Assembly (NCBI GenBank): GCA_027317865.1
Contig: DAHVQG010000004.1
Coordinates: forward strand, 64,001 to 128,000
Direction: 5' to 3'
DNA length: 64,000 nucleotides
Source: Bdellovibrionales bacterium
GTDB taxonomy: Bacteria; Bdellovibrionota; Bdellovibrionia; Bdellovibrionales; UBA1609
The translations under genes were made by a program, and so were the position numbers. Positions 7,054 through 26,088 of the stretch are shown one piece after another. Below the pieces are notes generated by a model. That model was not told the origin of the DNA and searched no databases. It saw only the letters and a program-made list of their open reading frames with translations. Numbering within the stretch: position 1 is the stretch's first letter; every line of letters starts with the position of its first letter.

Positions 7054-7080
7054 GAAATGCCAAACCGAAAAGGGGGGATT

Positions 7081-7779
7081 ATGAAAACATTAGTACTCGG
7101 GCTTTTACTCGCGTTAGCTTATCAGCCCTGCGCTCAAGCGCTACAGTTTCAATTAGCACCGCCGTGCGGACGACACGCGTCTGTTGGCGAAGTTTGTTCA
7201 CTGCCAATTCTTGCATTGCATCCGACGCAATTTACACTTGGGATGATCGAAGTCCGAGCCCGCGCAGCGCAATTCGAAAGAAAAAAACCGGCGAAATTCG
7301 CGAAATACATGAAAAAGCATAACGTACCGGTCGTCATCGGTCCGGACGGCGTCTTTTATATGACCGATCACCACCACTTGTCCCGCGCGCTATATGAAGA
7401 CGGCGTCCGAACAGTCAATGCGCAAGTGACACACGACTGGTCGAATTTGAACAGGGCGCAGTTTTGGTCCCGGATGGAGTCAACAAAGCAAGTTTATCTC
7501 TATGAAGATGGCCGCGGACCGCTTTCACCGAGCGAACTTCCGAATAACATCTTACAGTTAAAAAATGACTACTACCGCAGTTTAGCTTGGGCCGTGTGTT
7601 CCCAAACGAAAGCATTCAAAAAAGAAAAGGTCCTCTTTTTTAGTTTTTATTGGGCCAATTTTTTCAGAGCGCGCATACCGGATTCACTCGTTCGCAATCA
7701 TTTTGAACAGGCGGTACAGTTAGGCGCTCAATTAGCACGTTCACCAGCGGCAAAAGGAATGCCCGGCTATCGCGGCTAA
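7081..7779 (+). CDS. Exported ParB-like nuclease-fold protein (ParBc_2 type)
   Basis: Signal peptide MKTLVLGLLLALAYQPCAQA; LHPTQFTLG, VPVVIGPDG..YMTDHHHL, LKNDYYRSLAW motifs. Confidence 0.8.
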   Translation: MKTLVLGLLLALAYQPCAQALQFQLAPPCGRHASVGEVCSLPILALHPTQFTLGMIEVRARAAQFERKKPAKFAKYMKKHNVPVVIGPDGVFYMTDHHHLSRALYEDGVRTVNAQVTHDWSNLNRAQFWSRMESTKQVYLYEDGRGPLSPSELPNNILQLKNDYYRSLAWAVCSQTKAFKKEKVLFFSFYWANFFRARIPDSLVRNHFEQAVQLGAQLARSPAAKGMPGYRG

Positions 7780-7792
7780 GATTTTCAAGCCA

Positions 7793-8878
7793 TCAGGGTT
7801 CAAAGCAAAACCAGCCACCGACGGGGAAATGGTCGGTGGCACCACTTCCGGTTACCGGGTCAAAAGCAAGCGGTTTGCCACTTGGCGAAATAAACTCGTG
7901 GTGCCGAAGCGGCCCAAAGCTCCCTTGCTGCAAATATTTTAAAAAGTTTTGCGAAACAATGATCTGATCAAAGACTTCCCAACGCTTGCCGGCTTCAAAA
8001 AAACAGGTGGCCCGCTCTTTGAGTAAGCTTTCGGCATAATCATCTATTGTTTGCTTGTTTGCGCCTGGGTGTGCGGCCTTAAAATCGGCCATCCGTTTTT
8101 TCAAATTGAATGACTCTTCCTCTAAGTTACGCAATTTCTCAGTCATGCTTAATCCAAGACCGGCTTTCATTTCCGGGCTGTCGGGTTCCGCATTGAAATC
8201 ACCCATAATGATAATATTCGCAATCGGATTTCGTGACAAAATTTGATCGGTGACTTTTTTTAAAAACCGCGCCGCTTGAAACCGCTGCAACGCCGACCAG
8301 TCACCCAGTTTTTTACTTGGCCAATGGTTTACAAAGACAATCAGCTCTTCATCGTTTGGTAACCTTAAATGATATTCGACGATGGGTCTGGTCAAAAGAC
8401 CGCCTGAAAATTCTTTGCGCCCAAACCGCTTACGTTGCCGCCATAACGGATCGTCTTCGCTCCAATAGATATGCGCAACGGGCCCCTTAAGCATTGGAAA
8501 CCGTGAAATTAGCCCCAAGTTATTGCCGCGATCGTCCGCCTGAGGAGCAACGCCGTGACTGGCAAGACCCGATTTTTTCATCAAAGGATGCCGTACAAGT
8601 TGTGTCAAAAAATCACCGTCAACTTCGACGACTGCCAATAAATCGGGCCCTTTGTTGTCGTTCATTGAAGAAACCAATTTGGCTACCGCTTCAACTTTTT
8701 TTATTTCACTCTGTTTGTTCGGAAGAAATTTCTTATCGTGAATCAATTTAAACGCGTTCATCGTCGCTAGAAGATGCCCGCAAGAATAATTTGCGGATTT
8801 CTGCCGAGTCACCCCAATCGCATATGCGGGAACAAAAAAAATCGCACCCGCAAGCAGCAGGCGTTTCAACTTAGTCAT
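7793..8878 (-). CDS. Exported endonuclease/exonuclease/phosphatase (EEP) family protein
   Basis: LAVVEV, VNHWPSK, MGDFN, FDQI, TDHFPV catalytic motifs; signal peptide from ATG 8878, which overlaps the upstream stop (ATGACTAA); N-terminal CGHLL. Confidence 0.88.
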   Translation of the reverse strand: MTKLKRLLLAGAIFFVPAYAIGVTRQKSANYSCGHLLATMNAFKLIHDKKFLPNKQSEIKKVEAVAKLVSSMNDNKGPDLLAVVEVDGDFLTQLVRHPLMKKSGLASHGVAPQADDRGNNLGLISRFPMLKGPVAHIYWSEDDPLWRQRKRFGRKEFSGGLLTRPIVEYHLRLPNDEELIVFVNHWPSKKLGDWSALQRFQAARFLKKVTDQILSRNPIANIIIMGDFNAEPDSPEMKAGLGLSMTEKLRNLEEESFNLKKRMADFKAAHPGANKQTIDDYAESLLKERATCFFEAGKRWEVFDQIIVSQNFLKYLQQGSFGPLRHHEFISPSGKPLAFDPVTGSGATDHFPVGGWFCFEP

Positions 8879-10379
8879 CGTAACCCGAAAGCAAATCATC
8901 GCAATTCAGCTCCAACTGAGCCGACATTTTTTCAAATAATTTACGCTCACCGCTATTTAACGAATTAAAAAGATATCGCCGCCCCAACGGGCTGGAGTCA
9001 ACCGCCCGCAAAAGGTTTTTAAAAAAATCACGATTATTCAGTAGCGATTGACCCTTAAATTTTTCACCTCGAAATATTCCGATCAATCGCTTGAAATTAT
9101 ATTCAGTGGCGGTGCCCCTTTCGGCCATCCCCAATAGATCCTTAAATAAATCAAGCGCTGTCATCGGGGGATAAAGGCTTTTTGAAATTCGTTTTTTCGC
9201 GACCTGCATATATATCGCCATCGAATCAGTTGAATAATCTTTACTTGAAGATGACGTTTCGTCCTTATTACGCCAGTGCGGCACTTCGCCCCAACCATCC
9301 GAAAAAGAGGAAAATAGTGTTCGCCTTTCTTTAAACAGATCGGGAGCGGGAACTTGATCTTTAGGTATAAAAGTCAACGATTCGGTTCGTTTAAGTGGAA
9401 ATTCATACCCAAGTTCCAGCGCCGCTTTCTTAACTAAATCGATAAAGGTTGGGTCTCTCACAATTTTCATCACGTCGAACATTTCGCCGAGAATAGTTTC
9501 ATGCGCGGATGGCACATCTGCCCCCGGCGTTGTGCTTACTCGGCCATCCGCCGTGCGATGAAACGGACCAAACATTTCATGCCATCCGGTGGTATATGTG
9601 AGCGATGACGTTACCTTAGGCAAATAAAACGGATGAACCGGGCCTTCGGTCGTTATGTGACTGCGCTCCGATTCTTTCAATTGTTCAATATTAAGCGATG
9701 GCCTAATCACGTTGCTTTCAGTGCCGCCGCTCATGCCTATGCCAACGAAATTAACGCGATCGTAAAGCTTCTTTAAATCGCCTCCTTGAAGCGAATAACT
9801 TTGGTAAGCGGCGCGAATCAACTGACGCGATTGACTCGTTGAACGCCAACTCGTTACATCAAAGACGACAAACGGATAATCGTCGTTCATCTTTTCGAAA
9901 CTCAGCCCATTGCTACGTAAAAAATCAAACAAAAGCTCTCTGTCGTTTTGTGACGACTCTGTTGTCGCATTATAATAGTGTGGAAAACTCGGCCCGCTGG
10001 CATCCAGGCGCCTCACGCGGTTCTGTTGACCGATTGATTGATAGAAACCATCAAGCAAATCGGTCAGAAGCGCAACGTCGCGCCCAAGTCCAAGATATGT
10101 CGCACCCGGAAAAGCTCTTTCCATTGACGCAATGATGATTGCCGCATTTTGCGGTGAAAGCGAAACACCGTTATAAAACGGATTTATTGACGGCCATGTA
10201 TTGATTCCATATTTTGCGTCCATCGCAGATACAAACTCGTTTACAGTCGGACGGTTTCTTTGCTCTAAAAGCATTTGAATTGAATCGGCCGACCTCACGT
10301 TCATGCCGGCGGCCCGGCGGCCGTTGAAAACGCCAACTGTAAAAACGCAAATAAACGCCAAGCTTATCCAATACTTCAT
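8871..10379 (-). CDS. Exported hypothetical protein, 'GRD' family paralog 3 (possible PRTase-like fold)
   Basis: Shares RPT.E, FPG.T...GRD, FY...GQ..RV.RL, D..S...Q.R and LGYEFP with 16785..18401 and 21594..23198; C-terminal CDDLL. Confidence 0.8.
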   Translation of the reverse strand: MKYWISLAFICVFTVGVFNGRRAAGMNVRSADSIQMLLEQRNRPTVNEFVSAMDAKYGINTWPSINPFYNGVSLSPQNAAIIIASMERAFPGATYLGLGRDVALLTDLLDGFYQSIGQQNRVRRLDASGPSFPHYYNATTESSQNDRELLFDFLRSNGLSFEKMNDDYPFVVFDVTSWRSTSQSRQLIRAAYQSYSLQGGDLKKLYDRVNFVGIGMSGGTESNVIRPSLNIEQLKESERSHITTEGPVHPFYLPKVTSSLTYTTGWHEMFGPFHRTADGRVSTTPGADVPSAHETILGEMFDVMKIVRDPTFIDLVKKAALELGYEFPLKRTESLTFIPKDQVPAPDLFKERRTLFSSFSDGWGEVPHWRNKDETSSSSKDYSTDSMAIYMQVAKKRISKSLYPPMTALDLFKDLLGMAERGTATEYNFKRLIGIFRGEKFKGQSLLNNRDFFKNLLRAVDSSPLGRRYLFNSLNSGERKLFEKMSAQLELNCDDLLSGYDD

Positions 10380-12442
10380 ATACCTTCCAAATTCTCGTGA
10401 TCAATAAGCAAATCAGCGCAACTGTGATTTTCAAAAATATTTTTGTATTGTTTGTATAGCGTCTTCCGCGCATCGGGCTGCAATCGTTCGATAGCTTGCC
10501 GGAGTTGCTCGCGGTTAGGATGCAATTCCAAAAACTTTGCAAATGAAACTGCCACAAAATCCGACATACGCCGTTCATACTTCGGCGTCGGATCTTCTTG
10601 GTCGAACTGTATAAGCCTTACATATTCGCTTGGAGTACGGACATAAGCCCTCATGACCTTTTTCATGTATTCAATAAACGGGGGACCGTGGCGCACCAGC
10701 GTTTTCAGTTCGTTCAATTGGTCAAAGCCGGGATGGCTCGCCATGATTAAATCCAAATTGTCTACCACAATTTGGGCAATCTGAGGTTTATTGAGCGTTC
10801 GGACAACCATCATATTTTTCACATATGAAATAAATGTCTCAGGTGAAGTAAGCGCTTGGCTCCATTCGTAATTTGCCACAAGAGGTATCAGAAGCGCCGA
10901 ATACTTTTCTTTTCGTAAATCATTTTCATCATTGTCGAGATAGTCCTTAATATTCAAATATTCGCTTTCGTTTAACGTAGTGAAAAGATTGTACCGGCGA
11001 ATTACGTAGTCGATAAAATCCGGATCTGCATTCCGAGCAATCAGCGCCGTTAAATTTTCTCGCGAAATATTCAAAGTTTCTGGAATGAGACTTAAACTAT
11101 TCCGGTTATACACGCTGATGATTCCCGGCATAAGCACGCTAAAATCTTTATTTTGAACCGAACGGGGATTAACCTCAAAACCAACCCAAATTTCGCCCGG
11201 TTTTCGAACAGGCGTCTCAGATAAAATAATACCGGGAGGACCCCGCATTGGATTCGTTTTTTGGTCGGGCAGCAACAAGTTAGGAGCGTTGAGTTTACCC
11301 ATACGAAGACGCTCGAATGTTTCAAAGTCATAAATTTTCATATAGGCCGTTTTTATTCCAAGTTCGCCCGCTGTCGCACCCTGTACGCCGCCCAAAGAAA
11401 ACGCCGGCAATGGCTTTTGCTCCATTAACCATGCAAGCGAATCCGTATCACTGCGCGACCCAAACGTAGAAAGGTCTTTGCGCACACCCATTCTGTTTAA
11501 ATCAGCCCATGCGGCGTTTACGTCTAAGGCGTTGTTGATAAGCTTATTTGCGTTTTTTTCGATCCAGCGCAAAGCTCCGTGATATTGCGGATCTGTCTTA
11601 ATTTTTGAAAATGGTGCCGTTCGCAAGATCCTTTCAACAACTTTGAGGCTATTGCGATCGGGTTTAAGGCCATACTCAAATACTTTTATTAAAAACCTCA
11701 ATGCACTGATGACAACAGGATTGCCGGACGAAGATCGCGAAGTGGAATGATGAAGGCCGGTATTAAAATAGGTGATTTCTCCACGGGCGACGTCGTGAAA
11801 AAACAATCCTTCATCGCGGCGGAATTTTCTCAAATCTTGAATTCGTGATCGCTCACCCGTTGGGTCAGTAATCTCAATAAGGCCTGTGGATCCCGAGTCT
11901 GTATTTTGATTCTTAAAATCTTCATTGTTTAAAATGTCCGCCTTGAAACCGATGGAATACTGGAGCGGGCGCACTTCCCAAACCGAAATAGTTTTACCAC
12001 CCGTTGTCTTTTTGTAGGGGAATTTCATCTCAAGGTCATGCTGAAGTTCTTCCGCATATTGAGGTTTCGCGTCAACCACAATATCGATGTCCTGATTAAA
12101 ATGAAATATATTGACGATGCTAAAATCCAGCCGATCAGCGGAGAAGTCCCGCGAACCGAGTTCATATTGTTCCGCCCAACGGCAATAAACGGCAAAGGCC
12201 TCCGCCGCTCCACCAAAAAGATAAGCCCGTATGCCTCTTTTTTCCGCCCATTCCTTTATAAATTGAAACTCTTTTACACGGTCCAAATCAGTCTGGATTA
12301 GCTTTTCAAACTCGAGATACGATCCGTTTTGCCTCGAAATGGAAAGCATTTCGGGGGGATTTTCGTTCGCCGACGCGAACGAAGGCCCGCATATAAGTAC
12401 AAGTGCGAAAACTGGCAAAAGAAATAGATTTAAAACCTTCAT
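10376..12442 (-). CDS. Exported Pol-beta superfamily nucleotidyltransferase-like protein (CCA/poly(A) polymerase-like head)
   Basis: Signal peptide; YLFGG and QDIDIVV (hGG + DxD); later PVVISALRF resembling the DPLRxLR region; C-terminal CADLL. Confidence 0.65.
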   Translation of the reverse strand: MKVLNLFLLPVFALVLICGPSFASANENPPEMLSISRQNGSYLEFEKLIQTDLDRVKEFQFIKEWAEKRGIRAYLFGGAAEAFAVYCRWAEQYELGSRDFSADRLDFSIVNIFHFNQDIDIVVDAKPQYAEELQHDLEMKFPYKKTTGGKTISVWEVRPLQYSIGFKADILNNEDFKNQNTDSGSTGLIEITDPTGERSRIQDLRKFRRDEGLFFHDVARGEITYFNTGLHHSTSRSSSGNPVVISALRFLIKVFEYGLKPDRNSLKVVERILRTAPFSKIKTDPQYHGALRWIEKNANKLINNALDVNAAWADLNRMGVRKDLSTFGSRSDTDSLAWLMEQKPLPAFSLGGVQGATAGELGIKTAYMKIYDFETFERLRMGKLNAPNLLLPDQKTNPMRGPPGIILSETPVRKPGEIWVGFEVNPRSVQNKDFSVLMPGIISVYNRNSLSLIPETLNISRENLTALIARNADPDFIDYVIRRYNLFTTLNESEYLNIKDYLDNDENDLRKEKYSALLIPLVANYEWSQALTSPETFISYVKNMMVVRTLNKPQIAQIVVDNLDLIMASHPGFDQLNELKTLVRHGPPFIEYMKKVMRAYVRTPSEYVRLIQFDQEDPTPKYERRMSDFVAVSFAKFLELHPNREQLRQAIERLQPDARKTLYKQYKNIFENHSCADLLIDHENLEGI

Positions 12443-12459
12443 CCTTTAATTCGCAACCT

Positions 12460-15400
12460 TCATTCCTCTTTTGTGTTTGCGCTAACGGGTTGACGTATCA
12501 TTTTCGATAATAGAGTTGCGCACGAAACCGGCTTTGCGTTTTTTGCGCGCGCCTGCCAATCTTCGTACGTCCGAACCGGCTGTTGTGCGCTCTTTAATTT
12601 TTCTTCAATTTTGTGTTCAAGATCCTGAGCTCGCGATTCGCTTATGTCCCCTTTACGCATCAGCTCGGCGACTATCGCGCGAACAAGCGGCCATTTTTCT
12701 TTAAGAACGGCGATCGCAATTTCATGAGCGCGCGAAATCATTTGGCTTTGCTTTTGTTCAAACAATTGCCTTTGTCGCGAAGTTGCAAGAATTGGATTGC
12801 CTTTTTTATCGACTTGAACTCCTACAAGGTCGGTATCCATTCCCCATGTGGTGAGATATTCGGTTGTTACATATCTCATCGATTTCAAATCGTTTTGCCA
12901 TCCAATGTCGGCAGGTAAGCCCGCAAGCTCTTGAGCCACTCGACCGCCCCAAGCTTTAACAAGAAATGCCATCGTCTTATCGTAGTTGAAATTCGTATCC
13001 GCCCCGGGGATCGGCTTGTAATGCGCGTAGCCTTTTGCCGTTATCATTTTGCCGGTGAAATCTTTGAGGCGAGAATAGCGGATCGTAATATAATTCAAGA
13101 TCTCATTGGTTAATTCGGGATCATTTAAAACCGCGTGGCCAGCTTCATGGTAAGCCACTGTCTCAGCGTGTTTACCTAGCGGAATTTCGACTTCGGGCGC
13201 GAATTCCGTAAAGTCTTTTTGTATATAATCGAGTTTTTTACCATCCTTGTACACTTCAACGCCGACTAGAACCTTACGCGGCTCCGATTTTTTCTGGCGG
13301 TACGGTTTATTCGTCAAATTATCTTGAACATCGAGTTTGAATACATACGAAGACAAATCGTGCCCGATGTCGCCAGTCTTCATCAGTGCGGCTCCAAGAA
13401 GCGCACCCAGCCGGTTATCAAGCGCATTTCGAACCGATCGGCCACCTGTATCCGGGGTAAAAAATGCTCGGGTAAAATTCTCAACAAATTTAGGGCCGTA
13501 TTCAACAATCAGGCCCACGTGCTGTTCTTGCAGTCTGCGAATTTGATTTTTAAGTTCCTTTTCTGTGACACCTTTCATTTCGGTGGAAAGAAGCGGTTTC
13601 GCCAGTATGACGTCGGCTAGGCGCCCGAGAAACGCTTCGGGAATCCCATTTTTCACAAGATTCGCGCGAATGATCTCTTTCTTATTATTTTCGTTGTACG
13701 CATCCATTCTCAATTTATCGGTACTGAGACTCGTGAAGAATTCCTGCAAATCGTTGCCGGTGAATTCAAAAATATGATTTCGAAGATCGTATGTTCGGCC
13801 TGTTGCTGTCGACGTCCATTTGCCTTCGTCTAAAATTTCGTAGAAGTATTGCTTAAGCAGCTCTTCTTTGCGTTTGATGTCACCCCCGCCCATGTTAGAA
13901 AATTCATCGAAAACAATCACCCCGCCGTTTGGAGTGTTCATGAGCGCTCGCTCGAATTTTCCGATTTTGTGAGAGTCGACGTACCCGGCCGGTGAATTGA
14001 ATACGTCGTTCAAACGGCCCTCGAAATTAACATTGCCGAGTGGAATGACTTCAACTCGATCGGGTGAACCAAAAAGCGCCTCCGCAATTGCGCGGCCCAA
14101 TTCCGTCTTACCGACGCCCGTTGGGCCCACAATGGCAAACGATACGGCGGTTTTTCGACCCACGTCCGCATATTTCGACAATACGGCATCCGCTGCGCTT
14201 CGAACCGCTTCGTCTTGCCCGATAATCCGCGTCTTCATTCGTTCGGGCATCGATTGGATTTTTTCTAAAATTTCTTTGTCTTGAAGAGGATTAAAAAATT
14301 TCTGCTCGGGAGCGGCAACATCCAGGCTCTCGCTGTTGGTCCCATTTGTTACGCTCAATTTCACATCGGATGAGTTTTCGTTTTTGACTAAACCGATTTT
14401 AACTGTCCCATCCCGAGGGATATCCCAGTGGGCGCGTGCCTCGCGAATGGCAACTTTAAGATACGAATCGACCTGTTTGGCAACTTGCCGGTAGCCGTCC
14501 GTAACCGAAAATCCGGTCAGCGCTAAATGTTCAACCACAGCCGGCGAGACGTCGAGATGGAGATGATATTCAAACTCCATTTCGTTTTGCAATTTTTCAG
14601 TTTCACGGCGGGCAACCTCAATCGCGCCTTCTCGTGAACCCGGGTTGGCAATCGCCCACTCGTCGATTCGGCCCAAAACTTCCGGAGGTAATTGAAATTT
14701 GTCTTCGCCATCCGTCTTTTCGCGAAACAGTGCCGCGACGTCTTTTGATTTAAAACCTGCAAGTCGGCGATCGATTTCAGCCTGACTCCACATCGTAATA
14801 TTGTCCGGAAAAACGAGCTTCGCTCCCCGATTACTCGTGAGGATAACGATGTGACGGTTTGCCCGGCGAACTTTGCCATCGCCGCATGTAATTTCACCTT
14901 TATCAAAAAACTCCATTAACCGCTTCCACACATCAGGATGCATTTTTTCGGCTTCATTAATTACGATCACGCCGCCCATCTTGCCGCGAGAGGGGTCATC
15001 AAGGTATTCGCACAAAATACCGGACCTCTTATCTGAAGTTACCGTGCCGTTCGGTGAACCCACCAAAGTATTCACCGACAAGTCGCCGGTCTGATAGGTA
15101 TTGCCGTCTATAATGAGCGCTCTTCTTTTTGAACCGAATACTTTTTCAGCCAACGTTTCGGCAATTAAAGTCTTGCCGGTACCGGTAGTCCCGATAATCG
15201 CCATGACTTGCGGGCGCCTCGGGGTTCCGATTAATAAATTACCGACGCGTTCGACAAGCTTGTGAACCAAAGATTTCTGTTCAACAACAACGGAATCGAT
15301 CTCTTTTTCTTTCTCAGCTAAATATTCTTGAAAAGCCTTACCGTCGTGAGGGTTCGCCGGCAGCCCCGTGATCTCTTTTGCGTAATCGTAGATTTCGCTA

Positions 15401-18401: not shown

Positions 18402-20158
18402 TCTTCAGCATCCATCGGTTCAAATTCATCTTTGGGGAATTCATGTCTGTCAGACCTTGGGTTCACCAATGATCTTTCAATCTCAACCTTCTTTTGGCTT
18501 TCTAGCTCTTCAACAACGGACGCGACCTTCTCGGCGCTATCGGCAACCAGTATGTGGCTCTTGATTTCTGGCGAAAGCGAACTGTTCGCTATAAATTTAA
18601 GTAAATACGAGTAGTACTTTGAATTTTGAATCACGACGTACGGGGGCCGCTTCGAGTATTGAATCGCCACGAGCGTCGCCGCGAGCTCGCGCATGGTTCC
18701 GTTACCGCCGGGCTCAATAATTACTAAATCACGATTGTTTACTAGCAACGGTATCCGTGAATGGTAATCAAGCGTCGGAATCGTGTGCGATTGAACTTCG
18801 CTTCTTGTATCCGTCTCGTAAGGCAGCGCTCCACGACCGACGCGGGGTATTCCAATTGAAGGTCCACCCGCATCGTAGGCCCCCATGTTTGCCGCGTACA
18901 TAACTCCACCAGCACCTCCGGTAACCACCGGAATGCCGCGGCTCCCGAACCAATATGCCGTTTGATACGTGTCGGGGGCGACTTCTTCGTCTAAACGGCT
19001 CGACCCGAAAACAGCGGCACCGCGAACGCCAGAAAGAACTCTTACACCTGAACGAGTAACGTCCACGTGCTCAAGAAGAGCAATGATTTCACCAAGACTC
19101 ATATTATTTGGCGAAATGCTAAATGCTTTTAGATTAACTGGATCTTTTACGGCCGGGAAAACCGAATACCGTACTGATTCCAAAACGCGAGTGGCGTTGA
19201 CGATTGCAGATATCGAGTTTGTGATGCCAAGCCGCCGGTAGGATATTCCAAAACCCCTTTTTTCAGATTCCAGTAGACTCGACCAATCGTGAAGGCGATT
19301 TTTTGTATTACCGTCGAGGTCGAGAACAAATCCCGCATCATTATTGAGGAGTGCGGCCATCCCTAACGTCGAGTCCGGGCTTACAATTGCCGGCAAGGCA
19401 TGTGAAACGACTTCAAGAAATGAATACGAATTATTGAAATGTAAAACAATGCCAGGACGGCCTCTTTCATTTCTTGCCCCGGCTTCGGGTAACATTGAAA
19501 TTCCGATGCCGCAGGGACCCGCCGCTCGAGCAATTATTTCCGCCGCTTTGTTGTCGGCATCGTAGATAATTGTATAGTTTTTTGCCACGAGCTGAGCGAC
19601 AAGCCGTTCGTACTTCGTGGCTTCGGTGTCTGTTGGCGCACGATCGGACGAACCAACGAGAACCGAAACCAGTTTCGAGCGCGGCAACCTGTACACTTCT
19701 AATATTTGTTTGTAGTCTTCAAAAAATCCTCTATCTTCGGGTACAGCCAACCGCTCTTTTAGAACCGGGATCAACGACAACCGGTTTTTTTCTTTTAATT
19801 CTTCGATCAACCCCTCGAGTTTTTTTATTTTAAATTTGAGGTCAGCTATCTTCTTTTTGACTTCCGCGCGTTTTTCCGGTGAACGGGCTGCTGGTGATTT
19901 TTCGGCGTATTCGAGGTAAAAACCCCAAAAATCGCTTGCATCACTTGACTCAAGTTTGTTTTTTAATGACCTAATCTCGCGTTCCATTTCGCGAAGTTTT
20001 TCTATTGCTTCGACGAGTTGCGGGCTGCGGTATTCGGCAAGTTTAAAGGCCTGGGCTTTTTCACCTTTTAAGACACGGTCGCAAGGCTGCCCGTAGGCGC
20101 TAGAAATCGCGAAGGTTGAAACCACAAAAGCGCATAAAAACAAGCGGCGCGAAATCAT
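18398..20158 (-). CDS. Exported LOG/SLOG family protein (NMP phosphoribohydrolase-like), tandem SLOG domains
   Basis: AAVFGSSR, TGGAGGVM.AAN.GA, SIGIP, PGGNGTMREL; signal peptide followed by CDRVL. Confidence 0.85.
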   Translation of the reverse strand: MISRRLFLCAFVVSTFAISSAYGQPCDRVLKGEKAQAFKLAEYRSPQLVEAIEKLREMEREIRSLKNKLESSDASDFWGFYLEYAEKSPAARSPEKRAEVKKKIADLKFKIKKLEGLIEELKEKNRLSLIPVLKERLAVPEDRGFFEDYKQILEVYRLPRSKLVSVLVGSSDRAPTDTEATKYERLVAQLVAKNYTIIYDADNKAAEIIARAAGPCGIGISMLPEAGARNERGRPGIVLHFNNSYSFLEVVSHALPAIVSPDSTLGMAALLNNDAGFVLDLDGNTKNRLHDWSSLLESEKRGFGISYRRLGITNSISAIVNATRVLESVRYSVFPAVKDPVNLKAFSISPNNMSLGEIIALLEHVDVTRSGVRVLSGVRGAAVFGSSRLDEEVAPDTYQTAYWFGSRGIPVVTGGAGGVMYAANMGAYDAGGPSIGIPRVGRGALPYETDTRSEVQSHTIPTLDYHSRIPLLVNNRDLVIIEPGGNGTMRELAATLVAIQYSKRPPYVVIQNSKYYSYLLKFIANSSLSPEIKSHILVADSAEKVASVVEELESQKKVEIERSLVNPRSDRHEFPKDEFEPMDAEE

Positions 20159-21588
20159 TGAGAACCTTTCAGTATCGCCTGACAGTCGCCAGCGGATTTA
20201 TCATGTGGTTTAACAATAAGATCTTCGACAGCACGGCCGAGTTCCTCACCGATCGGGACAATGACGAGTTTGGAATTCTGTTTTACGACCGCATTTGATA
20301 CGGGATACGAATCCGTCACAACCAGTTGATCAATAGATGCACTATTGAGCGCTTTACCGCCGTCGCCCGCGAGGTGTGTAACGACCGCAATAACTTTAGT
20401 CGCCCCTGCTTTCTTCAAATAATCAGCCACGTCCGCTAATGTGCCCCCGGTTGACGTTTCATCGTCTACAATAGCGACAACTTTGCCCGCCGGGCTCGGT
20501 CCGCTGAATCCGTAAAATTTTGTTTGAGCAGTGAGTGGATCGCGCTGTTTATTGGCGACAGCAACAGGCAACTTCAGCATGTCCGCATAAAGCGTGGCAT
20601 CTTTTTGAAATCCCGTATCCGGTGAAACAATCATTTCAACATCGGCATTTCGCAAGTACGCGCACAATGTATTAAGGCCCAAAACATTAAAGCTCGGAAT
20701 ATCAAAAAAGCCCTGTGATTGCGGAGCGTGTGCCCGAGCAAATTCGATAGCCTCTGTGCCAACACTTTCAATTAAGTCGGCAATCAGACGGCCAATCACC
20801 GTTACACCTTTTTGATCCGCCTTATCCGATCGCGCCCACGGCAACGGCGTTACCCACGTTACGGCGGCTCCATCTCTTGTCATCTGCGCAACTCGCGCCA
20901 AGGCGGCAAAAAAGGTTTCACTTTTGGGGATTACGACTGGCCTCACAAAAATTATTTGCGCGCCCTTTACCGCTCCTCTCGGGAGAGAACCTGGATTATA
21001 AACCGGCAAATTCAGAACACGCCCCATATCGCGAGCAATCGAATCGTGGGAGTCTTGAAGAATAAAACTGTGTGTCAGATGATGCCTGCCGGGCCAAACA
21101 CGACGGATTCTAATGGTTCGCGGATGGTTCCCGTTTTCAACAAACTTGGTCGCACCCGCTATGCCGATAAGCGATTCCACCGGTAAGGCAAGCGAACCGT
21201 TTGCGGTCGTGACCCGTATTTTTGAAATCGAAGTATTAAGAAAAGCAACAATCTCTCGTGCACCGAGCGTTCTTGCCGTTCGAATCTTAATCAAAGCCTC
21301 CATAAACATTTGGGGCGTCATTTCATCTGGAATCAAAATCCCGACTCGTTTGCCAGTAAGATTGGTCTGCACGCGCACGAAAGTGTCGCCGTTAGAAAAC
21401 TCTTGAGTTTTTTCTTCAATCATCCGGCAGCCAGGGTGTGACGTGCAGAATCGATTAGCAGCTTCTGAAAAATTACGTACAGAGAATAGTAATACGCTTC
21501 GATTGCGGGCGCTGGCGTAACCCGAGCCGACGAGCATAAGGGTCGTCATGCTCAAAAATGCAATTTTATTTAAACCCAACCCTTTCAT
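20155..21588 (-). CDS. Exported ribose-phosphate pyrophosphokinase-like protein with duplicated N-terminal domain
   Basis: FSNGDTFVRV, PWARSDK, HAPQSQGFFDIP, VSPDTG, KQR, IVDDETSTGGTL, VTH; signal peptide; ATG 21588 with GAGG RBS (GTG 21597 alternative); C-terminal CQAIL. Confidence 0.87.
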   Translation of the reverse strand: MKGLGLNKIAFLSMTTLMLVGSGYASARNRSVLLFSVRNFSEAANRFCTSHPGCRMIEEKTQEFSNGDTFVRVQTNLTGKRVGILIPDEMTPQMFMEALIKIRTARTLGAREIVAFLNTSISKIRVTTANGSLALPVESLIGIAGATKFVENGNHPRTIRIRRVWPGRHHLTHSFILQDSHDSIARDMGRVLNLPVYNPGSLPRGAVKGAQIIFVRPVVIPKSETFFAALARVAQMTRDGAAVTWVTPLPWARSDKADQKGVTVIGRLIADLIESVGTEAIEFARAHAPQSQGFFDIPSFNVLGLNTLCAYLRNADVEMIVSPDTGFQKDATLYADMLKLPVAVANKQRDPLTAQTKFYGFSGPSPAGKVVAIVDDETSTGGTLADVADYLKKAGATKVIAVVTHLAGDGGKALNSASIDQLVVTDSYPVSNAVVKQNSKLVIVPIGEELGRAVEDLIVKPHDKSAGDCQAILKGSQ

Positions 21589-21593
21589 CGTCC

Positions 21594-23198
21594 TCACCCT
21601 GCAGGTTTCAAAACGTCACTACACGTGGCTTCTAACATTTTACTTAACCGCTCATATGCCTTCGATCCGAGCGGACCGGATTTATGTTCGTTATTTAAAA
21701 AATATTCCCTCTTTGAGTTCCAAACTTCTTCGAAGGTGCGGCTGTTATGGTAGAGATGCGCCAAGCCGCTTTCAAATTTCTCACGCTCGCTCACGGCCGC
21801 GCCATTAACCGTGTCTTCACTTGCAATTGGATAGTTCGCAAGTAAACGCTTGATTAGGCGGCGAAGATCGCGCGCGCTAATTTTGCCATTTTCAAATGCA
21901 TGTACCGAACCCGCTAAAAACATGAGCGCAATTTGACCCGAATTTTTGTCAGTGCGGCCGTAAACATCCGATTTCATAAGAGACAAAATCTTCATTCCGT
22001 TTTCAGTCATCGGTTCGGCATCTTCACCAACAGGGCCAAGCTCTGAAATTATATCTTTGAACGATCTCTGCGCTTCAGCTATACGCTGTTCGGCAATTTC
22101 GTCGGCCGTTAGCATTCGAATGTCCGTTCGTTCGCGCGCGCGCCCCTCTGGGAACTCATACCCCAGTTCTCTAGCCGCTTTTTGCACTTCACTATAAAAC
22201 TCTTTTGTCGAAACAATTCCTATGATGTCGTACAGACCACCTAAAATTGTTTGGCGTATTTCAACGCTGGACAGACCTCCAGGTGGAGCGAAAACGCGCC
22301 CGTCTTGCATGCGCTGAAGTTGAAGGAATGGGCCGTGCCACTCTGAGCTGTAAGCAAGTTGGGCGCCATCGATTTTCAAAATTCGATCAGGACCGGTTGG
22401 CTGAGCATTCGATGTTTTAATGTACTTTTCGATTTTTTTTACAGTTTCATAATTTTGCGATCCAATTATCGGGTAGTTCGAATTTTTTATGTCAATGACA
22501 TTGACCTTCATCAAAAGGTTCGTGAGCGGCTTTTGTGTGCCTTGGTACACACTATAAAACGCACCAATATATTGGCGGCTTTGGCTCGTAGGGCTGTAAC
22601 TGGTCGCATCGATAATAATAAACGGCGGGTCTTGATCCACAGACTGCAGATGAAGTCCGTTAGTCGCCAAAAAATCGACCAAAATATCGGGCGTGCTGCC
22701 AACCAAAGATTGCCCGCTTGCATTGAGCCGCACGACGCGATGGTTTTGCCCGTGAGCTCGGTAAAAAGCGTCGACCATATCGGCAATCAATGCGGAGTCG
22801 CGACCCAAAAACGCATACGTTCCGCCCGGGTAGGCCGCTTCAAGACTAGCAATAATTTTTGGCCCGTCAGCCTTGGTTACAGCCACGGCTTGCGAACGTT
22901 CACCGGCATTTCTAAAGGGATTTTTTCTTGGCCACGGCGTTAACGCATTTTCGATTTCGGCAATGGTCGGGCGAGATTGCATGTTAAGCAATTCATTGAT
23001 TTTTTCATCACGAGCCTTTTTAGCTAATTGCTCCTGAACTTGCGGTTCGCCCCCATCGCTCAAATTAGTTGTCGTTATAGTCCCAAAGGCTCCGTGCCAG
23101 GACGTCCGGCTATTCGCCGCACGAACCTTCGCCGACACCGAAGCTGCTACAATTAAACCGGCGATCAACATTGATAACGCCTTACCCATTTTCCCCAC
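21594..23198 (-). CDS. Exported hypothetical protein, 'GRD' family paralog 1 (possible PRTase-like fold)
   Basis: Signal peptide; YPGGTYAFLGRDS, IIIDATSYSPTSQSR, LGYEFP; C-terminal CSDVL. Confidence 0.8.
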   Translation of the reverse strand: MGKMGKALSMLIAGLIVAASVSAKVRAANSRTSWHGAFGTITTTNLSDGGEPQVQEQLAKKARDEKINELLNMQSRPTIAEIENALTPWPRKNPFRNAGERSQAVAVTKADGPKIIASLEAAYPGGTYAFLGRDSALIADMVDAFYRAHGQNHRVVRLNASGQSLVGSTPDILVDFLATNGLHLQSVDQDPPFIIIDATSYSPTSQSRQYIGAFYSVYQGTQKPLTNLLMKVNVIDIKNSNYPIIGSQNYETVKKIEKYIKTSNAQPTGPDRILKIDGAQLAYSSEWHGPFLQLQRMQDGRVFAPPGGLSSVEIRQTILGGLYDIIGIVSTKEFYSEVQKAARELGYEFPEGRARERTDIRMLTADEIAEQRIAEAQRSFKDIISELGPVGEDAEPMTENGMKILSLMKSDVYGRTDKNSGQIALMFLAGSVHAFENGKISARDLRRLIKRLLANYPIASEDTVNGAAVSEREKFESGLAHLYHNSRTFEEVWNSKREYFLNNEHKSGPLGSKAYERLSKMLEATCSDVLKPAG

Positions 23199-23201
23199 TG
23201 G

Positions 23202-25613
23202 TTATTCCCTCAACCTTTCAGTTTTAACGCTTTTCGCGCCGTTATCTAAATATTTCGTATTTATATCACTTAACGCATTTCGAATGTCGTCCGCCGAATT
23301 CACCAAATATATCCTCGACAAAACCGATGCTGGTAACTTCGATTCTTTAAGATAGTTGGCAAGCGATCCGTAGAAATCGTTGGCCACAAAAATGATGCTT
23401 TGGCTCTTATTGAGGCCCGATGCGAAATTGACAAAAGCTGTCGCCAGTTCTTGAAGCGTCCCCTTACCGCCCGGCATGACCACGACAACGTTGTTCATAT
23501 AGAGCAACAACGGGATACGCGTTCGATAGTCAGTCGTTGATAAGGTCAGATTATGGACATCTGTCGCTGCCGATTTTTCACGCCATAGACTGCCACTCTC
23601 AAGCGGAATACCGATCGAAATGCCACCCGAGTTTATGGCGGCATCGTTGGCAATTCTCATAAACCCGTCCGCTCCACCAGTCGCAATGGCCAAACCGCTT
23701 TGCGCGATGGTTTTCGAGATGCTGTAAACCATCGAATCATATTTTGACTCTCGGGTACTTGAACCGAAAACGACCGCGCCCCCGGGAGTTTTTTGGCGTA
23801 ACGCCTGAACGGCTTCGGTCATTTCACGCTGATAATTCGAAATTTGTGAAAGTTGGTGGCGATCTAATTTCGCGATAAATTGGCCGTCATTTAATCGAAC
23901 CGGTTCCGTTTCTGCGAAGACAATTCCCGGCGTATCGCTATATTTTTCATAATCACTATATTTGCTATATTTTGATTTTTTACCGCGAAGACTTTCAATC
24001 GCTTCGTTGTTTGTTTTAAATTTTTGGATGCTAAGAAAGTGGTAATTGTCTCGAATCCCAAACGAGTAACCGTCAATGTTGTCAGTCCATTTGCGTAAGC
24101 CACCTAAGATGGGAAAATCAGAATTGTTGATAGTGCCGTCAATGTCCTTTTGAAGAAGCAATCCAAACCCGGTGACCGAGTCAGCCGTCATGATTCGATT
24201 GTTCGAATATGCAAACGCCTTCATTCTTAGGTACGGATTGGGTATCGATAAAATCTGGCTATTGTGGAGCATTGTTTCCGAACCGGCGGTCACTTCGCTC
24301 GTAATACCGACTCCACGGTCACCGACGGCTTCTGCGATAAGCGGCGCTGTCGGCACGTCGGCATCAAAAAAAACTATATAACCGTTCTTCGCCGCCGATC
24401 GAGCCAGCTCCACCGCTTCATTGGCATCGGCGTTGTTTGCGGCGCCCGTCAGAAGTGTCAGAGTTTTTGAAGTTCCGTCGCAGATAGCTTGCACCCAACG
24501 ATAATTCAGCATTTCACGGAGGTAGCCGCTATTTGCGTTTTCTTGTTTCAGTGCCGATATAAAATTGGCTTGAAGTTCGGCCGTCTGCTTTAACTCTCGT
24601 TCACGTTCCGCAATAAGCCGTTTTCGCTCGTTTTCTCTTTGTTTGGCGGCTATCTCTTCGTAATTTTCTTGAAGTTCGCTCAATGCGACTCCCTTCGGAT
24701 AATCGCTCTCTTTTAGAAATTTGAAATTCCAGTCAGCGGTACGCACGAGACGCGGCTTACCGTCATCGTCGAAAAATGAAACCACGTAGTCAGAGTTAAT
24801 TAATGAATCCCTTGCCCGGCCATAAACCAATGCGATCCGTTTCGACTTCGTCTTTATGCCTGAAACGGATGAGCCCGTAACCGGATCACGAAAGAACGAA
24901 TTTGAACTCAATACAGCAGCAGCCACTGCATGTTCCGGCTTTAATCCCTCGGTTTTGCGAATCACGGTGTTGATTGCCAACAACTCCTTCGTCGGAGATT
25001 CAACTTTTGTCGACGGAATCGGCACTTCCGCGGCAGCTAGCGATTCTGTTTTATTTTCTAAAGCATTGAGTTTCGGCGATTCTCGTCGTAACAATACCGA
25101 CGCCGCGACCAACGTCGAGTGGCCTTTGATTCGTGAAAATTCCGTTCCGTGTCTTTTAAAAGCAGAATCGTTGTAAAACTCTAATTCTTCTGGTTCAACC
25201 CAAGCGATTCGACGGCCATGAGTTGTCCATCCAGAAATTGCGACGGATGTTCCGCCTAACTTAAAATCATTGTTTTTAACCCCATAGACATAAATATCGT
25301 TCAACGGCGAAAGCACGACGTTACCGCTTAAGGCAATTGGCGAGGTCAATTTGGCGAGAGCGATCGGTTTCGTTTCGGCACTAACCTCAGCTATGTCCGT
25401 TGTGAGTGCTTTGATCGCTTTTTTAAAAGTCGGCTCTGTGGTATTTGTCCCACGCAGAATCAATTCGCAAACTGTAGACTTCTTTTCACTTTTCCCATTT
25501 TTCTTTGTGGCCGCGTGGGCCGAATTAAAGCTGAACAATATCAACAATGAAACAAGCAAAAGGGCTTGAGAATTACAGTCGTGAGACTTGAGCTTTAATG
25601 GCGCCCCCTTCAT
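23202..25613 (-). CDS. Exported LOG/SLOG family protein, large, with unknown N-domain and coiled coil
   Basis: AVVFGSS, TGGADGFM, SIGIP, PGGKGTLQEL; signal peptide ending AHA then CELIL; strong RBS (AAGGTGAGGGG). Confidence 0.85.
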   Translation of the reverse strand: MKGAPLKLKSHDCNSQALLLVSLLILFSFNSAHAATKKNGKSEKKSTVCELILRGTNTTEPTFKKAIKALTTDIAEVSAETKPIALAKLTSPIALSGNVVLSPLNDIYVYGVKNNDFKLGGTSVAISGWTTHGRRIAWVEPEELEFYNDSAFKRHGTEFSRIKGHSTLVAASVLLRRESPKLNALENKTESLAAAEVPIPSTKVESPTKELLAINTVIRKTEGLKPEHAVAAAVLSSNSFFRDPVTGSSVSGIKTKSKRIALVYGRARDSLINSDYVVSFFDDDGKPRLVRTADWNFKFLKESDYPKGVALSELQENYEEIAAKQRENERKRLIAERERELKQTAELQANFISALKQENANSGYLREMLNYRWVQAICDGTSKTLTLLTGAANNADANEAVELARSAAKNGYIVFFDADVPTAPLIAEAVGDRGVGITSEVTAGSETMLHNSQILSIPNPYLRMKAFAYSNNRIMTADSVTGFGLLLQKDIDGTINNSDFPILGGLRKWTDNIDGYSFGIRDNYHFLSIQKFKTNNEAIESLRGKKSKYSKYSDYEKYSDTPGIVFAETEPVRLNDGQFIAKLDRHQLSQISNYQREMTEAVQALRQKTPGGAVVFGSSTRESKYDSMVYSISKTIAQSGLAIATGGADGFMRIANDAAINSGGISIGIPLESGSLWREKSAATDVHNLTLSTTDYRTRIPLLLYMNNVVVVMPGGKGTLQELATAFVNFASGLNKSQSIIFVANDFYGSLANYLKESKLPASVLSRIYLVNSADDIRNALSDINTKYLDNGAKSVKTERLRE

Positions 25614-25986
25614 TGCCGACCCCTCACCTTCTTTGGAAGCTGTCGACTTACACGAAATGTCAAAATTTGGTCAAGAATTCAAAACATGAAGCGGTAATAC
25701 CGTAAAAAACTTTCTCAAATTTATGAAATTAATACGGTGATGTTGAACTTTAATCGGAATTGTTCTAGCTGCGGCGAACTTGACTGGATTTTGATATTTT
25801 TGCGCAAAATGAAAAACTGCTTTTAATATCTCATCTGCAACTGCTATGTCTGTTTGACAGTGGTAAGACATCGTCGCCGCCGCGGATTAACAGATTGATT
25901 GCAACCCGGCGGCGATTTTTTCGCAAATTCGCGCCCTACCCCAAAAAATAACAAGCCAGAAAAGACCCAATAGGGGTTTGTTGGTT

Positions 25987-26063: not shown

Positions 26064-26088
26064 AAACTCATAGACTCGTCAATGCCGT

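Follow-up and report, generated by a model that had tools for sequence, protein, structure and literature searches.

The window, meaning the whole 64-kb stretch of DNA that was analysed, contains an operon whose nine products share a short cysteine motif close to one terminus, raising the question of whether this motif is a true common feature and what it would do for the enzymes that carry it. How predatory or cell-attacking bacteria without classical injection systems move enzymes past their own periplasm is poorly understood. Every operon protein contains a single copy of the pattern C-x-x-[LIV]-[LI], close to one end of the chain (9/9; 5,949 amino acids with 25 cysteines in total), all nine copies being located on the minus strand at the coordinates collected in Table 1, which confirms the claim of the preliminary description that the motif is shared by the whole set. 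That description also held the tag cysteine to be the only one in the mature chain of the GRD-family paralogs, as is the case for P2, P5 and P8. Signal-peptide-like N termini, called by eye and with a crude hydrophobicity rule, are present in 9/9 operon proteins, and the N-terminal tags lie from a few to ~25 residues past the signal-peptide cleavage site. For P9 the likelier start is at position 8878, as judged from orthologs, placing the tag cysteine at residue 33 instead of residue 40 of the longest open reading frame.

Table 1. Operon proteins, their tags and a tentative further member, with positions in the window.
Feature	Position	Strand	Description
P1	23202..25613	-	803 aa; signal peptide; C-terminal SLOG/LOG-like domain
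P1 tag CELIL	25455..25469	-	N-terminal, Cys49; codons TGC GAA TTG ATT CTG
P2	21594..23198	-	534 aa; GRD-family paralog; no Pfam or NCBIfam match
P2 tag CSDVL	21609..21623	-	Cys 9th from end; sole Cys outside signal peptide
P3	20155..21597	-	480 aa; signal peptide and ribose-phosphate diphosphokinase (PRPP synthetase) homolog
P3 tag CQAIL	20170..20184	-	Cys 9th from end; in tail past matched domain (domain end ~residue 460)
P4	18398..20158	-	586 aa; signal peptide; C-terminal SLOG/LOG-like domain
P4 tag CDRVL	20069..20083	-	N-terminal, Cys26; ~3 residues past likely cleavage site
P5	16785..18401	-	538 aa; GRD-family paralog
P5 tag CAEVI	16797..16811	-	Cys 8th from end; sole Cys outside signal peptide; overlaps P6 start codon
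P6	12460..16812	-	1450 aa; signal peptide; three AAA+ modules (ClpA/ClpB-like); C-terminal M41 (FtsH-type) peptidase, HEAGH
P6 tag CATLL	12508..12522	-	Cys 20th from end; in tail after M41 peptidase
P7	10376..12442	-	688 aa; signal peptide; model resembles class II CCA-adding enzyme or poly(A) polymerase
P7 tag CADLL	10406..10420	-	Cys675, 14th from end
P8	8871..10379	-	502 aa; GRD-family paralog
P8 tag CDDLL	8889..8903	-	Cys 10th from end; sole Cys outside signal peptide
P9	7793..8899	-	longest ORF 368 aa; signal peptide and endonuclease/exonuclease/phosphatase (EEP) domain
P9 tag CGHLL	8768..8782	-	directly before first strand of EEP domain
ParB-like nuclease, PF08857 (tentative tenth member)	7057..7779	+	signal peptide, then ...YQPCAQAL...

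The likelihood of finding such a set by chance was estimated from each protein's own composition over 71 terminal start positions, giving a joint probability for the nine proteins of about 1e-18.3 for the strict motif, about 1e-9.9 for the relaxed form C-x-x-x-[LIVMF] and about 1e-5.5 for any terminal cysteine. As the GRD trio and the SLOG pair are paralogs, about six independent families stand behind this joint probability, and even with this considered the pattern is still far beyond chance. The 40 other open reading frames of the window (14,671 amino acids, 161 cysteines) contain 10 strict matches with none in the last 25 residues and two in the first 50, one at residue 4 in the reading frame of a cytoplasmic glycosyltransferase and the other at residue 21 inside a lipoprotein signal peptide. 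The relaxed rule, a near-terminal cysteine followed by any hydrophobic residue at +4, matches 20/79 unrelated reading frames, so single relaxed matches mean little. The segment YQPCAQAL of the ParB-like nuclease resembles GQPCDRVL in P4 and is a relaxed match only; given the ~25% background of this rule, the nuclease is only a lead as a tenth tagged protein. The tag cysteine is encoded by TGC or TGT and the hydrophobic positions by TTG, CTG, TTA, CTA, CTT, ATT, ATA, GTT or GTC, and because the codons vary among the nine sites the tag is not a DNA repeat or other DNA feature.

Conservation of the cysteine in orthologs had been named beforehand as one of the observations on which the tag would stand or fall, and the cysteine is kept. 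A search with the GRD family returned 18 matches among 5.8 billion proteins, 18/18 having the tag cysteine, which is invariant in 20/20 aligned proteins although the C-terminal half does not align; in three short members (339-375 amino acids) that half is absent and the tag follows directly after the conserved core. The P7 family retains the cysteine in 10/10 matches. For the EEP family, with 13 of 33 matches taken into the alignment, it is found in 4/4 close orthologs and 0/8 distant Bacteroidota-type homologs. The SLOG sample comprised the best 150 representatives, 111 having a signal-peptide-like start, and in 87/111 of these a cysteine occurs in the next ~65 residues, being the only mature cysteine in 55/87. 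This N-terminal zone has a cysteine density of 1.32% compared with 0.12% in the rest of the chain, and the residue at +4 is hydrophobic in 71/87 compared with 26.5% at other positions of the zone and 38% at other cysteines (binomial p ~1e-26), with +3 hydrophobic in 43/87.

The C-terminal tags were pooled (n=43, combining 28 unselected search matches with 15 window and locus orthologs picked as tag-bearing), and here +4 is hydrophobic in 43/43 and +3 in 31/43. The distance from cysteine to chain end is 6-33 residues (median 9), and the tails after the tag have 1-28 mostly polar residues. The five-residue motif as first described therefore stands in part, the cysteine and a hydrophobic +4 residue (L, I, F, M, V or Y) being invariant across relatives while +3 is hydrophobic in only about half to three-quarters. 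A working definition of the tag was adopted comprising a Sec-type signal peptide, a lone or rare cysteine within ~35 residues of a mature end, a hydrophobic residue at +4 and conservation in orthologs. It describes 9/9 window proteins, 18/18 GRD and 10/10 P7 relatives and 4/4 close EEP orthologs, and the combination of signal peptide, terminal cysteine and hydrophobic +4 is present in 71/111 signal-peptide-bearing SLOG representatives. At +7 the window tags have T, A, S, E, S, M, H, Y and M, and some tags, such as CMDLLK and CGGYLK, stop before this position.

The AlphaFold2 model of P5 (mean pLDDT 82.5) places the tag helix at residues 531-537 on a tail with pLDDT below 50, and in the P7 model the tag helix (residues 676-679) begins just after Cys675, the pLDDT of both helices being below about 60. 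The short helix suggested in the preliminary description is borne out to the extent that both models show one leading from the cysteine on a low-confidence tail. The core of the tag, as modelled, is C-x-x-Φ-Φ forming a predicted one-turn helix on a flexible tail, often with a polar residue and glycine following. By eye, a coiled-coil-like sequence is present right after the tag of P4.

The window tags are carried by six folds, namely SLOG/LOG-like, PRPP-synthetase-like, GRD, triple AAA+ with M41 protease, CCA/poly(A)-polymerase-like nucleotidyltransferase and EEP nuclease, and the related loci add a tagged alpha/beta hydrolase and a tagged 188-amino acid unknown protein. The idea of a portable tag usable from either end is upheld in that at least six unrelated folds of the window bear it and both ends are used, but each family is fixed to one end, N-terminal for SLOG and EEP and C-terminal for GRD, P7, PRS and AAA+. 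Locus orthologs have the tag at the same end for PRS (2/2), AAA+ (1/1) and P7 (1/1), as do SLOG orthologs (4/4) in loci L001, L002, L003 and L006 where the N terminus is present. Across the window and these four loci the tag is found in 26/28 homologs, the two misses being one 5'-truncated reading frame and one protein without a signal peptide, compared with 1/6 homologs in loci L004 and L005. Within a genome, the families thus agree in having or lacking the tag. In a small post hoc sample, tag-less relatives have Trp/Lys-rich stretches at the same termini resembling membrane-binding amphipathic segments.

The tag is almost certainly a real feature selected at the protein level. It is a portable terminal element in which one or two hydrophobic residues come one helical turn after a lone cysteine. 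Within a group of uncultured Oligoflexia/Bdellovibrionia, six or more families of exported enzymes unrelated to one another have acquired it, and it is retained in relatives in which the remaining mature chain is nearly cysteine-free. No description of such a tag was found in print, and it looks like a previously undescribed address or attachment signal.

The cargo is unusual in comprising an exported PRPP synthetase, a triple-AAA+ protease, a CCA/poly(A)-polymerase-like enzyme, two LOG-like enzymes and a rare new family. The enzymes look catalytically intact and ATP/NTP-dependent from their sequences, with three Walker A motifs and HEAGH visible in P6 and a DDETSTGGT loop in P3. Several of them (the PRPP synthetase, the AAA+ protease and the CCA/PAP-like nucleotidyltransferase) need ATP or NTPs, so they most likely act inside the cytoplasm of another cell, for example prey, or in what leaks out of it. 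That enzymes dependent on nucleotides, RNA and ATP bear Sec signal peptides suggests delivery into another cell, predation being inferred solely from the taxonomic labels of related MAGs.

The explanation that best accounts for these features, with a probability of roughly 40%, is that the tag is a docking helix whose single thiol is available to form a mixed disulfide, either with other proteins that carry the tag or with a partner common to them. The thiol and the hydrophobic side chains would line the same side of the helix, and this face would dock in a hydrophobic groove beside a reactive cysteine of another tagged protein or of a shared partner, which might be a carrier, receptor or oxidoreductase. 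A mixed disulfide formed in the oxidising periplasm or extracellular space could tether or sort the co-expressed nucleotide-, RNA- and protein-degrading enzymes to travel as a set, and reduction in a cytoplasm would free them. Points against this mechanism are that the L004/L005 homologs manage without the tag, that the aromatic critical at position 7 of the Mia40 signal is not a feature of the tags, that the tag helices have low pLDDT, that the lone cysteine could equally be modified, that a Sec signal peptide alone sufficed for release of a reporter in B. bacteriovorus (PMC12622784), and that the search for a partner gave no candidate. The window and the six related loci yielded no thioredoxin-fold, Dsb-like or Mia40-like gene, nor a carrier, translocase or modifying enzyme, and the related loci have no non-operon neighbour in common. 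A bolder and rather improbable extension takes the tag as the address of an unknown delivery route in Bdellovibrio-like bacteria, with terminal-thiol capture, joint carriage into another cytoplasm and release by reduction. The oxidative trap or reducible tether would then be a bacterial counterpart of the Mia40 relay, carrying enzymes that work only where ATP, NTPs, tRNA and nucleotides exist, and the Trp/Lys-rich terminal motif of the tag-less relatives might be an alternative address for the same cargo.

Set against the docking helix, the alternative surviving best, though itself somewhat unlikely, is a self-contained oligomer staple in which the tag binds only its counterpart on another copy of its own protein, by way of a hydrophobic mini-zipper and an interchain disulfide lock, stabilising the enzymes outside the cell with no partner or sorting role. 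LOG, PRPP synthetase and AAA+/FtsH families are oligomers, a matter of general knowledge that favours a staple, as do the flexible ends on which the tags sit, the sequence following the P4 tag and the cysteine-poor remaining chain, which is expected if stray disulfides are to be avoided. A staple would not require the same sequence in every family, however, and the same five-residue pattern occurs on at least six unrelated folds including usually monomeric families such as the EEP nucleases; the concordant presence or absence across families within a genome points instead to something shared.

The lone cysteine could equally be open to lipidation or other modification. A dedicated enzyme might recognise C-x-x-Φ-Φ close to a free end and S-acylate the cysteine or modify it covalently in another way, anchoring the tagged proteins to a membrane, vesicle or surface. 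This fits an invariant cysteine beside hydrophobic residues on an accessible tail and would agree with the membrane-binding-like termini of the small sample of tag-less relatives. The tag fits neither the lipobox nor the CaaX pattern, nearby genes in the window and the six related loci include no acyltransferase or the like, and we know of no system that lipidates an internal cysteine of Sec-exported proteins at either end, making such a modification site rather unlikely. Quite improbable is a non-covalent second-step secretion signal, with the cysteine a recognition residue only, read by an outer-membrane or cell-to-cell translocon. The tag is terminal, portable and confined to Sec-exported proteins, and in the window the operon adjoins pilB-pilT-pilC-pilS-pilR, but the pil genes do not flank the related loci and a strictly invariant cysteine, being rare and reactive, is unusual for a purely non-covalent signal. 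Also against it, the available part of a B. bacteriovorus secretion toolbox study, which covers only Sec signal peptides, describes a reporter brought into the supernatant by a Sec signal peptide alone, so that on this evidence a second signal is not generally needed for release in that species (PMC12622784).

A degron or adaptor tag for the AAA+ protease P6, serving timed destruction or unfolding of the co-expressed enzymes, is highly unlikely. AAA+ unfoldases can grip unstructured peptides at either terminus of a chain, and a P6-type protease is present in both the window operon and locus L003, but P6 itself is tagged, degrons do not typically need an invariant cysteine, and tagged SLOG relatives are many whereas GRD and P7 are rare families. 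The motif definition is post hoc and the P5 and P8 tags overlap or abut the start codon of the next gene, yet chance, composition or a by-product of overlapping genes or ribosome-binding sites at gene junctions can be dismissed, with a joint probability of 1e-18 to 1e-10, varied codons, three N-terminal tags and a cysteine kept in relatives with different neighbours and lengths.

A five-residue tag that serves from either terminus and marks a defined set of cargo would be a direct handle on enzyme delivery, one that predicts which proteins travel together and is open to mutation or transplanting onto reporters, with the concordant presence and absence across genomes usable for finding partners by phylogenetic profiling. 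A true dimer staple would be a smaller finding, yet a neat convergent acquisition of one motif by many folds.

Comparison of the terminal cysteine tag with known systems shows several partial likenesses. PEP-CTERM, GlyGly-CTERM, MYXO-CTERM, LPXTG and type VII YxxxD/E signals are also short terminal motifs common to unrelated exported proteins of one lineage, but to our knowledge they are never N-terminal. In the -CTERM and LPXTG signals the motif precedes a transmembrane helix and then a basic tail; exosortase, rhombosortase and sortase signals are rejected on the short, mostly polar tails that follow the tag, and no NCBIfam or Pfam sorting-domain model matches any of the nine proteins. The N-terminal tags are like a lipobox in having a cysteine shortly after the signal peptide. 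A lipobox, [LVI][ASTVI][GAS]-C, sits right where the hydrophobic core of the signal peptide ends, and it is rejected on the residues preceding the cysteine (STV in P1, GQP in P4 and NYS in P9) and the C-terminal position of six tags; charged spacers separate hydrophobic core and cysteine in P1 and P9, and many SLOG relatives have Lys/Glu-rich spacers. The CaaX prenylation box is likewise an attachment site with a cysteine and then aliphatic residues near the C terminus, in which the cysteine must be the fourth-last residue and +1 and +2 must be aliphatic. It is rejected on a cysteine 6-33 residues from the end, hydrophobic residues at +3/+4 and three N-terminal tags in the window. Microcompartment encapsulation peptides and encapsulin cargo-loading peptides are short, portable, helical N- or C-terminal tags on a flexible linker, directing sets of unrelated enzymes to one destination. 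Their cargo is cytoplasmic and binds the shell non-covalently with no conserved cysteine, whereas the operon cargo has Sec signal peptides; a cargo tag of this kind is rejected on the nine signal-peptide-like N termini and the absence of shell or encapsulin families from the window.

The closest geometry is that of the mitochondrial intermembrane-space targeting signal (ITS/MISS) of Mia40 substrates, which in the available part of its description is a helix with hydrophobic residues 3, 4 and 7 from the docking cysteine, placed upstream or downstream of it and sufficient for targeting (PMC2806287). The operon tag shares the hydrophobic residues 3 and 4 away on the same face (+4 and +3 in 43/43 and 31/43 C-terminal tags and in 71/87 and 43/87 SLOG relatives, with the helix predicted from the cysteine), and the Mia40 signal works by mixed disulfide with a receptor-oxidase in a periplasm-equivalent compartment (PMC2806287). 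Differences are that the Mia40 signal depends on a critical position-7 residue, aromatic or hydrophobic, that the operon tag lacks (PMC2806287), that it is internal whereas the tag is terminal, and that its substrates have twin CX3C/CX9C motifs and final internal disulfides whereas the operon tag often has a single cysteine. Mia40 substrates also go with a Mia40/Erv1 relay; no Mia40- or Erv-like gene is present in the 64-kb window, and P7 was rejected as ALR-like, its similarity not being significant (E 0.09-0.47) and CxxC being absent. Membership of the Mia40 system is rejected on position 7 and on the sole mature cysteine of P2, P5, P8 and 55/87 SLOG relatives, and the likeness of the tag to the Mia40 signal is an analogy of geometry only.

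The nine exported proteins of the operon (P1-P9 in order of transcription) are encoded by closely packed genes between bases 7793 and 25613 on the minus strand of the window, with most neighbors overlapping by 4-29 bases. All nine start with a basic and then a hydrophobic segment resembling a Sec signal peptide, as called by eye and with a crude rule. The preliminary description had claimed that these proteins share a terminal tag, C-x-x-[LIV]-[LI], and this motif is found exactly once in each of them and near an end in 9/9, with every position assigned to it being correct. The operon proteins contain 25 Cys among 5,949 residues, nine of which are the tag Cys. Calculated analytically from the composition of each protein, the joint probability of a terminal match in 9/9 is ~1e-18 for the strict motif, ~1e-10 for C-x-x-x-[LIVMF] and ~1e-5.5 for any Cys. 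The GRD members (P2, P5 and P8) and the SLOG members (P1 and P4) are paralogs, and the nine proteins therefore represent about six independent families; the margin over chance is very large even allowing for this paralogy and for a motif chosen post hoc. Elsewhere in the window, the 40 further ORFs contain 10 strict matches, none in the last 25 residues. The codons vary freely among the nine motifs, so that it is the protein sequence, rather than the DNA, that is conserved, and a DNA-level repeat or junction artefact is ruled out by the differing codons and the unrelated flanks. As an internal comparison, three other seemingly exported hydrolases of the window (a trypsin-like protease, an S1/P1-nuclease-like protein and a beta-lactamase-family protein) are without the strict tag and, unlike the operon proteins, rich in Cys, with 7-8 each.

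In the core of the tag, the Cys is followed by two residues, mostly polar or small, and then by one or two hydrophobic ones, with no conservation before the Cys or beyond +5; Gly is present at +6 in 4/9 window tags. Between a C-terminal tag and the stop there are 1-28 residues, and an N-terminal tag is separated from the likely cleavage site by a few to ~25 residues. The AlphaFold2 models of P5 and P7 both predict a short helix starting from the Cys (residues 531-537 and 676-679, respectively), located on a low-confidence tail that is unpacked against the body. Positions 0, +3 and +4 of a helix lie on the same face.

Features of the operon, its surroundings and the related loci (positions refer to the window unless a locus is named)
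Feature	Position	Strand	Description
P1, P4			C-terminal SLOG/LOG-like domain (PF18306, PF03641)
P2	21594-23198	-	GRD paralog; no Pfam or NCBIfam model matched
P3	20155-21597	-	Ribose-phosphate diphosphokinase (PRPP synthetase, PRS) homolog
P5	16785-18401	-	GRD paralog; no Pfam or NCBIfam model matched
P6	12460-16812	-	1450 aa; three AAA+ modules, ClpA/ClpB type, and C-terminal M41 (FtsH-type) metallopeptidase
P7			No family match; model like class II CCA-adding enzymes
P8	8871-10379	-	GRD paralog; no Pfam or NCBIfam model matched
P9			Endonuclease/exonuclease/phosphatase (EEP) domain
ParB-like nuclease	7057-7779	+	PF08857; convergent with operon; signal peptide, then YQPCAQAL
Trypsin-like protease	53897-54961	-	
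S1/P1-nuclease-like protein	60960-62204	+	
Beta-lactamase-family protein	2758-4233	-	
tRNA-Arg	25987-26063	-	Anticodon CCT; between pilR and first operon gene
Release factor 2 frameshift site	53276-53291	-	AGGAGG TAT CTT TGA C; upstream of ORF 52219-53199
Alpha/beta hydrolase	L003:12228-13220	-	Only Cys in N-terminal tag-like CGVYL
188-aa protein	L006:5289-5855	-	Family unassigned; only Cys in CSSLF just after signal peptide
Trp/Lys-rich C termini	L004:7593-9977, L004:9908-11890, L005:2177-3520		
Trp/Lys-rich N termini	L004:11953-13557, L004:13585-15309, protein P0126		

The proteins carrying the tag are diverse in fold. The match of P3 to its family covers the N-terminal domain at residues 37-118 and resumes at ~residue 209, and the gap indicates that P3 has an insertion of ~90 residues in addition to its signal peptide and tagged tail; its PRPP loop is seen in the sequence, as are the three Walker A motifs and the HEAGH site of P6. 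The triple AAA+ plus M41 arrangement of P6 in one exported chain is unusual given the signal peptide, and the P6 ortholog in L003, one of six related loci in MAGs (L001-L006), has 1434 amino acids. The P5 model (mean pLDDT 82.5) gives only weak fold matches, the best being PRPP-dependent ribofuranosyltransferases and PyrR (best E 0.024), so that a phosphoribosyltransferase-like fold is a lead and not a result. The invariant residues of the GRD family include E102, D116, R136, D179, S182 and Q188 (P5 numbering), and its VDTVSxGxG stretch, which is reminiscent of the PRPP loop of phosphoribosyltransferases, points the same way as the fold matches. The P7 model (mean pLDDT 82.3) matches class II CCA-adding enzymes with a best E of 1.3e-4. 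A reading of P7 as an ALR/Erv1 sulfhydryl oxidase, for which comparison of the sequence with solved structures gave non-significant matches only (E 0.09-0.47), is dismissed, as P7 lacks a CxxC and the model places it with the CCA-adding enzymes.

Conservation of the Cys in orthologs had been set beforehand as a test by which the tag could be refuted. The tag withstands it, as the Cys is retained in 18/18 GRD proteins, 10/10 P7 homologs and 4/4 close EEP orthologs. The GRD family is rare, with 18 matches among 5.8 billion proteins, and the Cys is placed 6-16 residues from the C terminus, as part of C-x-x-[LIVMF][LIVMF] in 12 and of C-x-x-x-L in 6. In an alignment of 20 GRD sequences the tag Cys is among 16 invariant columns, the C-terminal half being otherwise unalignable, and in three short members that are missing this half, the tag follows immediately on the conserved core. 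The last Cys of the P7 homologs lies 6-33 residues from the end and is followed by x-x-[LIYFA]-[LF]. Pooling the C-terminal tags of the 28 unselected GRD and P7 matches with those of 15 window and locus orthologs picked as tag-bearing gives a hydrophobic residue at +4 in 43/43 and at +3 in 31/43.

The N-terminal tags show a comparable pattern. Of the 150 top-ranking SLOG representatives (50% identity clusters) retrieved with P4 as the query, 111 have a signal peptide-like start and 87 of these have a Cys within ~65 residues after it (24/111 have none), which is the sole Cys of the mature chain in 55/87. A hydrophobic residue at +4 accompanies the Cys in 71/87 compared with 26.5% for other positions of the zone and 38% for the other Cys of these proteins (binomial p ~1e-26), and Cys density is eleven times higher in the zone than in the rest of the chain (1.32% versus 0.12%). 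The four close EEP orthologs with intact N termini carry CEYFL, CDYFL, CDYWL and CNYLL at the same place, and the Cys is absent there from eight distant, mostly Bacteroidota-type homologs (13 of 33 matches aligned). Both hydrophobic residues are already part of the first domain strand of EEP, which leaves the Cys as the only new element. In orthologs from the related loci the tagged end agrees with that of the window protein, being the C terminus in PRS (CAEIL, CSDQI), AAA+ (CGSHV) and P7 (CARAI) proteins and the N terminus in SLOG proteins (CEKTL, CFTFL, CAWSI, CGSLF). Two further exported proteins in the syntenic clusters, the alpha/beta hydrolase and the 188-amino acid protein, look like additional tagged folds. 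The observation of the tag in the nine proteins is thus confirmed and extended.

The relaxed rule (a Cys with a hydrophobic residue at +4 near an end) also matches 20/79 unrelated ORFs, a background of ~25%, and is unspecific for single cases. The ParB-like nuclease, the YQPCAQAL of which resembles GQPCDRVL in P4 and fits the relaxed motif only, is therefore a tentative tenth member. The tag is present in 26/28 homologs from the window and L001, L002, L003 and L006, the two misses being an ORF cut by the contig end and one without a signal peptide. It is not universal, as 5/6 GRD and SLOG homologs of L004 and L005 are without it. Presence or absence is concordant across families within a genome, a descriptive result as L001 and L002 belong to one MAG and paralogs are not independent, and such concordance is expected if a reader of the tag is encoded elsewhere in the genome. 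At the corresponding termini of the tag-less homologs there are stretches rich in Trp and Lys (HPKKGWGYFLERF, HPKQSWFSFFRKSS, KPSQWKNKVSIWRERIF and PKPQGWRNRLVAYL, for instance), which may be an alternative terminal tag, in a small sample and with a motif defined post hoc.

P3, P6 and P7 are members of families that use ATP or NTPs and carry export signals despite this, the bacterial periplasm normally being without ATP. Together with the two LOG-like enzymes, the EEP nuclease and three possibly PRPP-dependent enzymes, they give the cargo set the look of a kit for acting on another cell's nucleotides, RNA and proteins. The idea that this cell would be prey draws only on the cargo set and on the taxonomic labels of the MAGs containing the related loci (Oligoflexia, Bdellovibrionia, Bdellovibrionales or delta proteobacterium). 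Outside the operon, the window is ordinary Gram-negative housekeeping, with genes for lipid A synthesis, BamA, Skp, LolCD-like proteins, RF2 and the type IV pilus. The RF2 ORF begins at profile position 24 because of the programmed +1 frameshift site upstream, a classical and well known feature of this gene. The tRNA-Arg gene beside the operon suggests that the operon may be an inserted island, although its GC content (0.44-0.49) does not set it apart from the flanks. A search of the 25.6-26.1 kb gap for small ORFs gave nothing other than the tRNA, and no sigma-54 promoter, a possible link to the adjacent pilR, was matched in 25614-26088; the 63 sigma-54 matches over the whole window, against 60 expected, amount to chance, as does a scan of the operon for sigma-70 promoters and terminators.

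The portable terminal tag proposed in the preliminary description is supported. The invariant lone Cys, the nearly Cys-free chain and export to an oxidizing compartment argue for thiol chemistry over mere shape recognition. With the geometry of the Mia40 signal, this favors an inferred mechanism in which the tag would be a docking helix forming a mixed disulfide either with a common partner or with further tagged proteins, and the disulfide would tether or sort the tagged set. Pfam searches of the 40 other window ORFs, of 7 unannotated ORFs with a lenient threshold and of 10 locus ORFs returned no thioredoxin, Dsb, Mia40 or acyltransferase candidate for the partner, and all-against-all BLAST of the window and locus ORFs gave two-component-system proteins as the only ones in common beyond the operon families. 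The Cys could also be a plain homo-oligomer staple, linking copies of the same protein, or a site of lipid or other modification, both rival uses of the residue. A non-covalent secretion signal and a degron for P6 are further rivals.

The tag was compared with the CaaX box, the lipobox, exosortase, rhombosortase and sortase signals, and microcompartment or encapsulin cargo tags, and it lacks the defining features of each. A search of the openly accessible literature centered on Bdellovibrio and SLOG gave no account of a tag or an operon of this kind, and the tag is considered new as a sequence feature. The Mia40-substrate targeting signal of the mitochondrial intermembrane space consists of a short amphipathic helix bearing hydrophobic residues at 3, 4 and 7 positions from the docking Cys, which slides into a hydrophobic cleft enabling the mixed disulfide and is sufficient for targeting foreign proteins (PMC2806287). 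The tag lies outside the Mia40 system, because position 7 is unconserved, the tagged proteins are without twin Cys motifs and nothing resembling Mia40 or Erv is seen among the window and locus ORFs; in its geometry, however, the Mia40-substrate signal as described there is the closest precedent.
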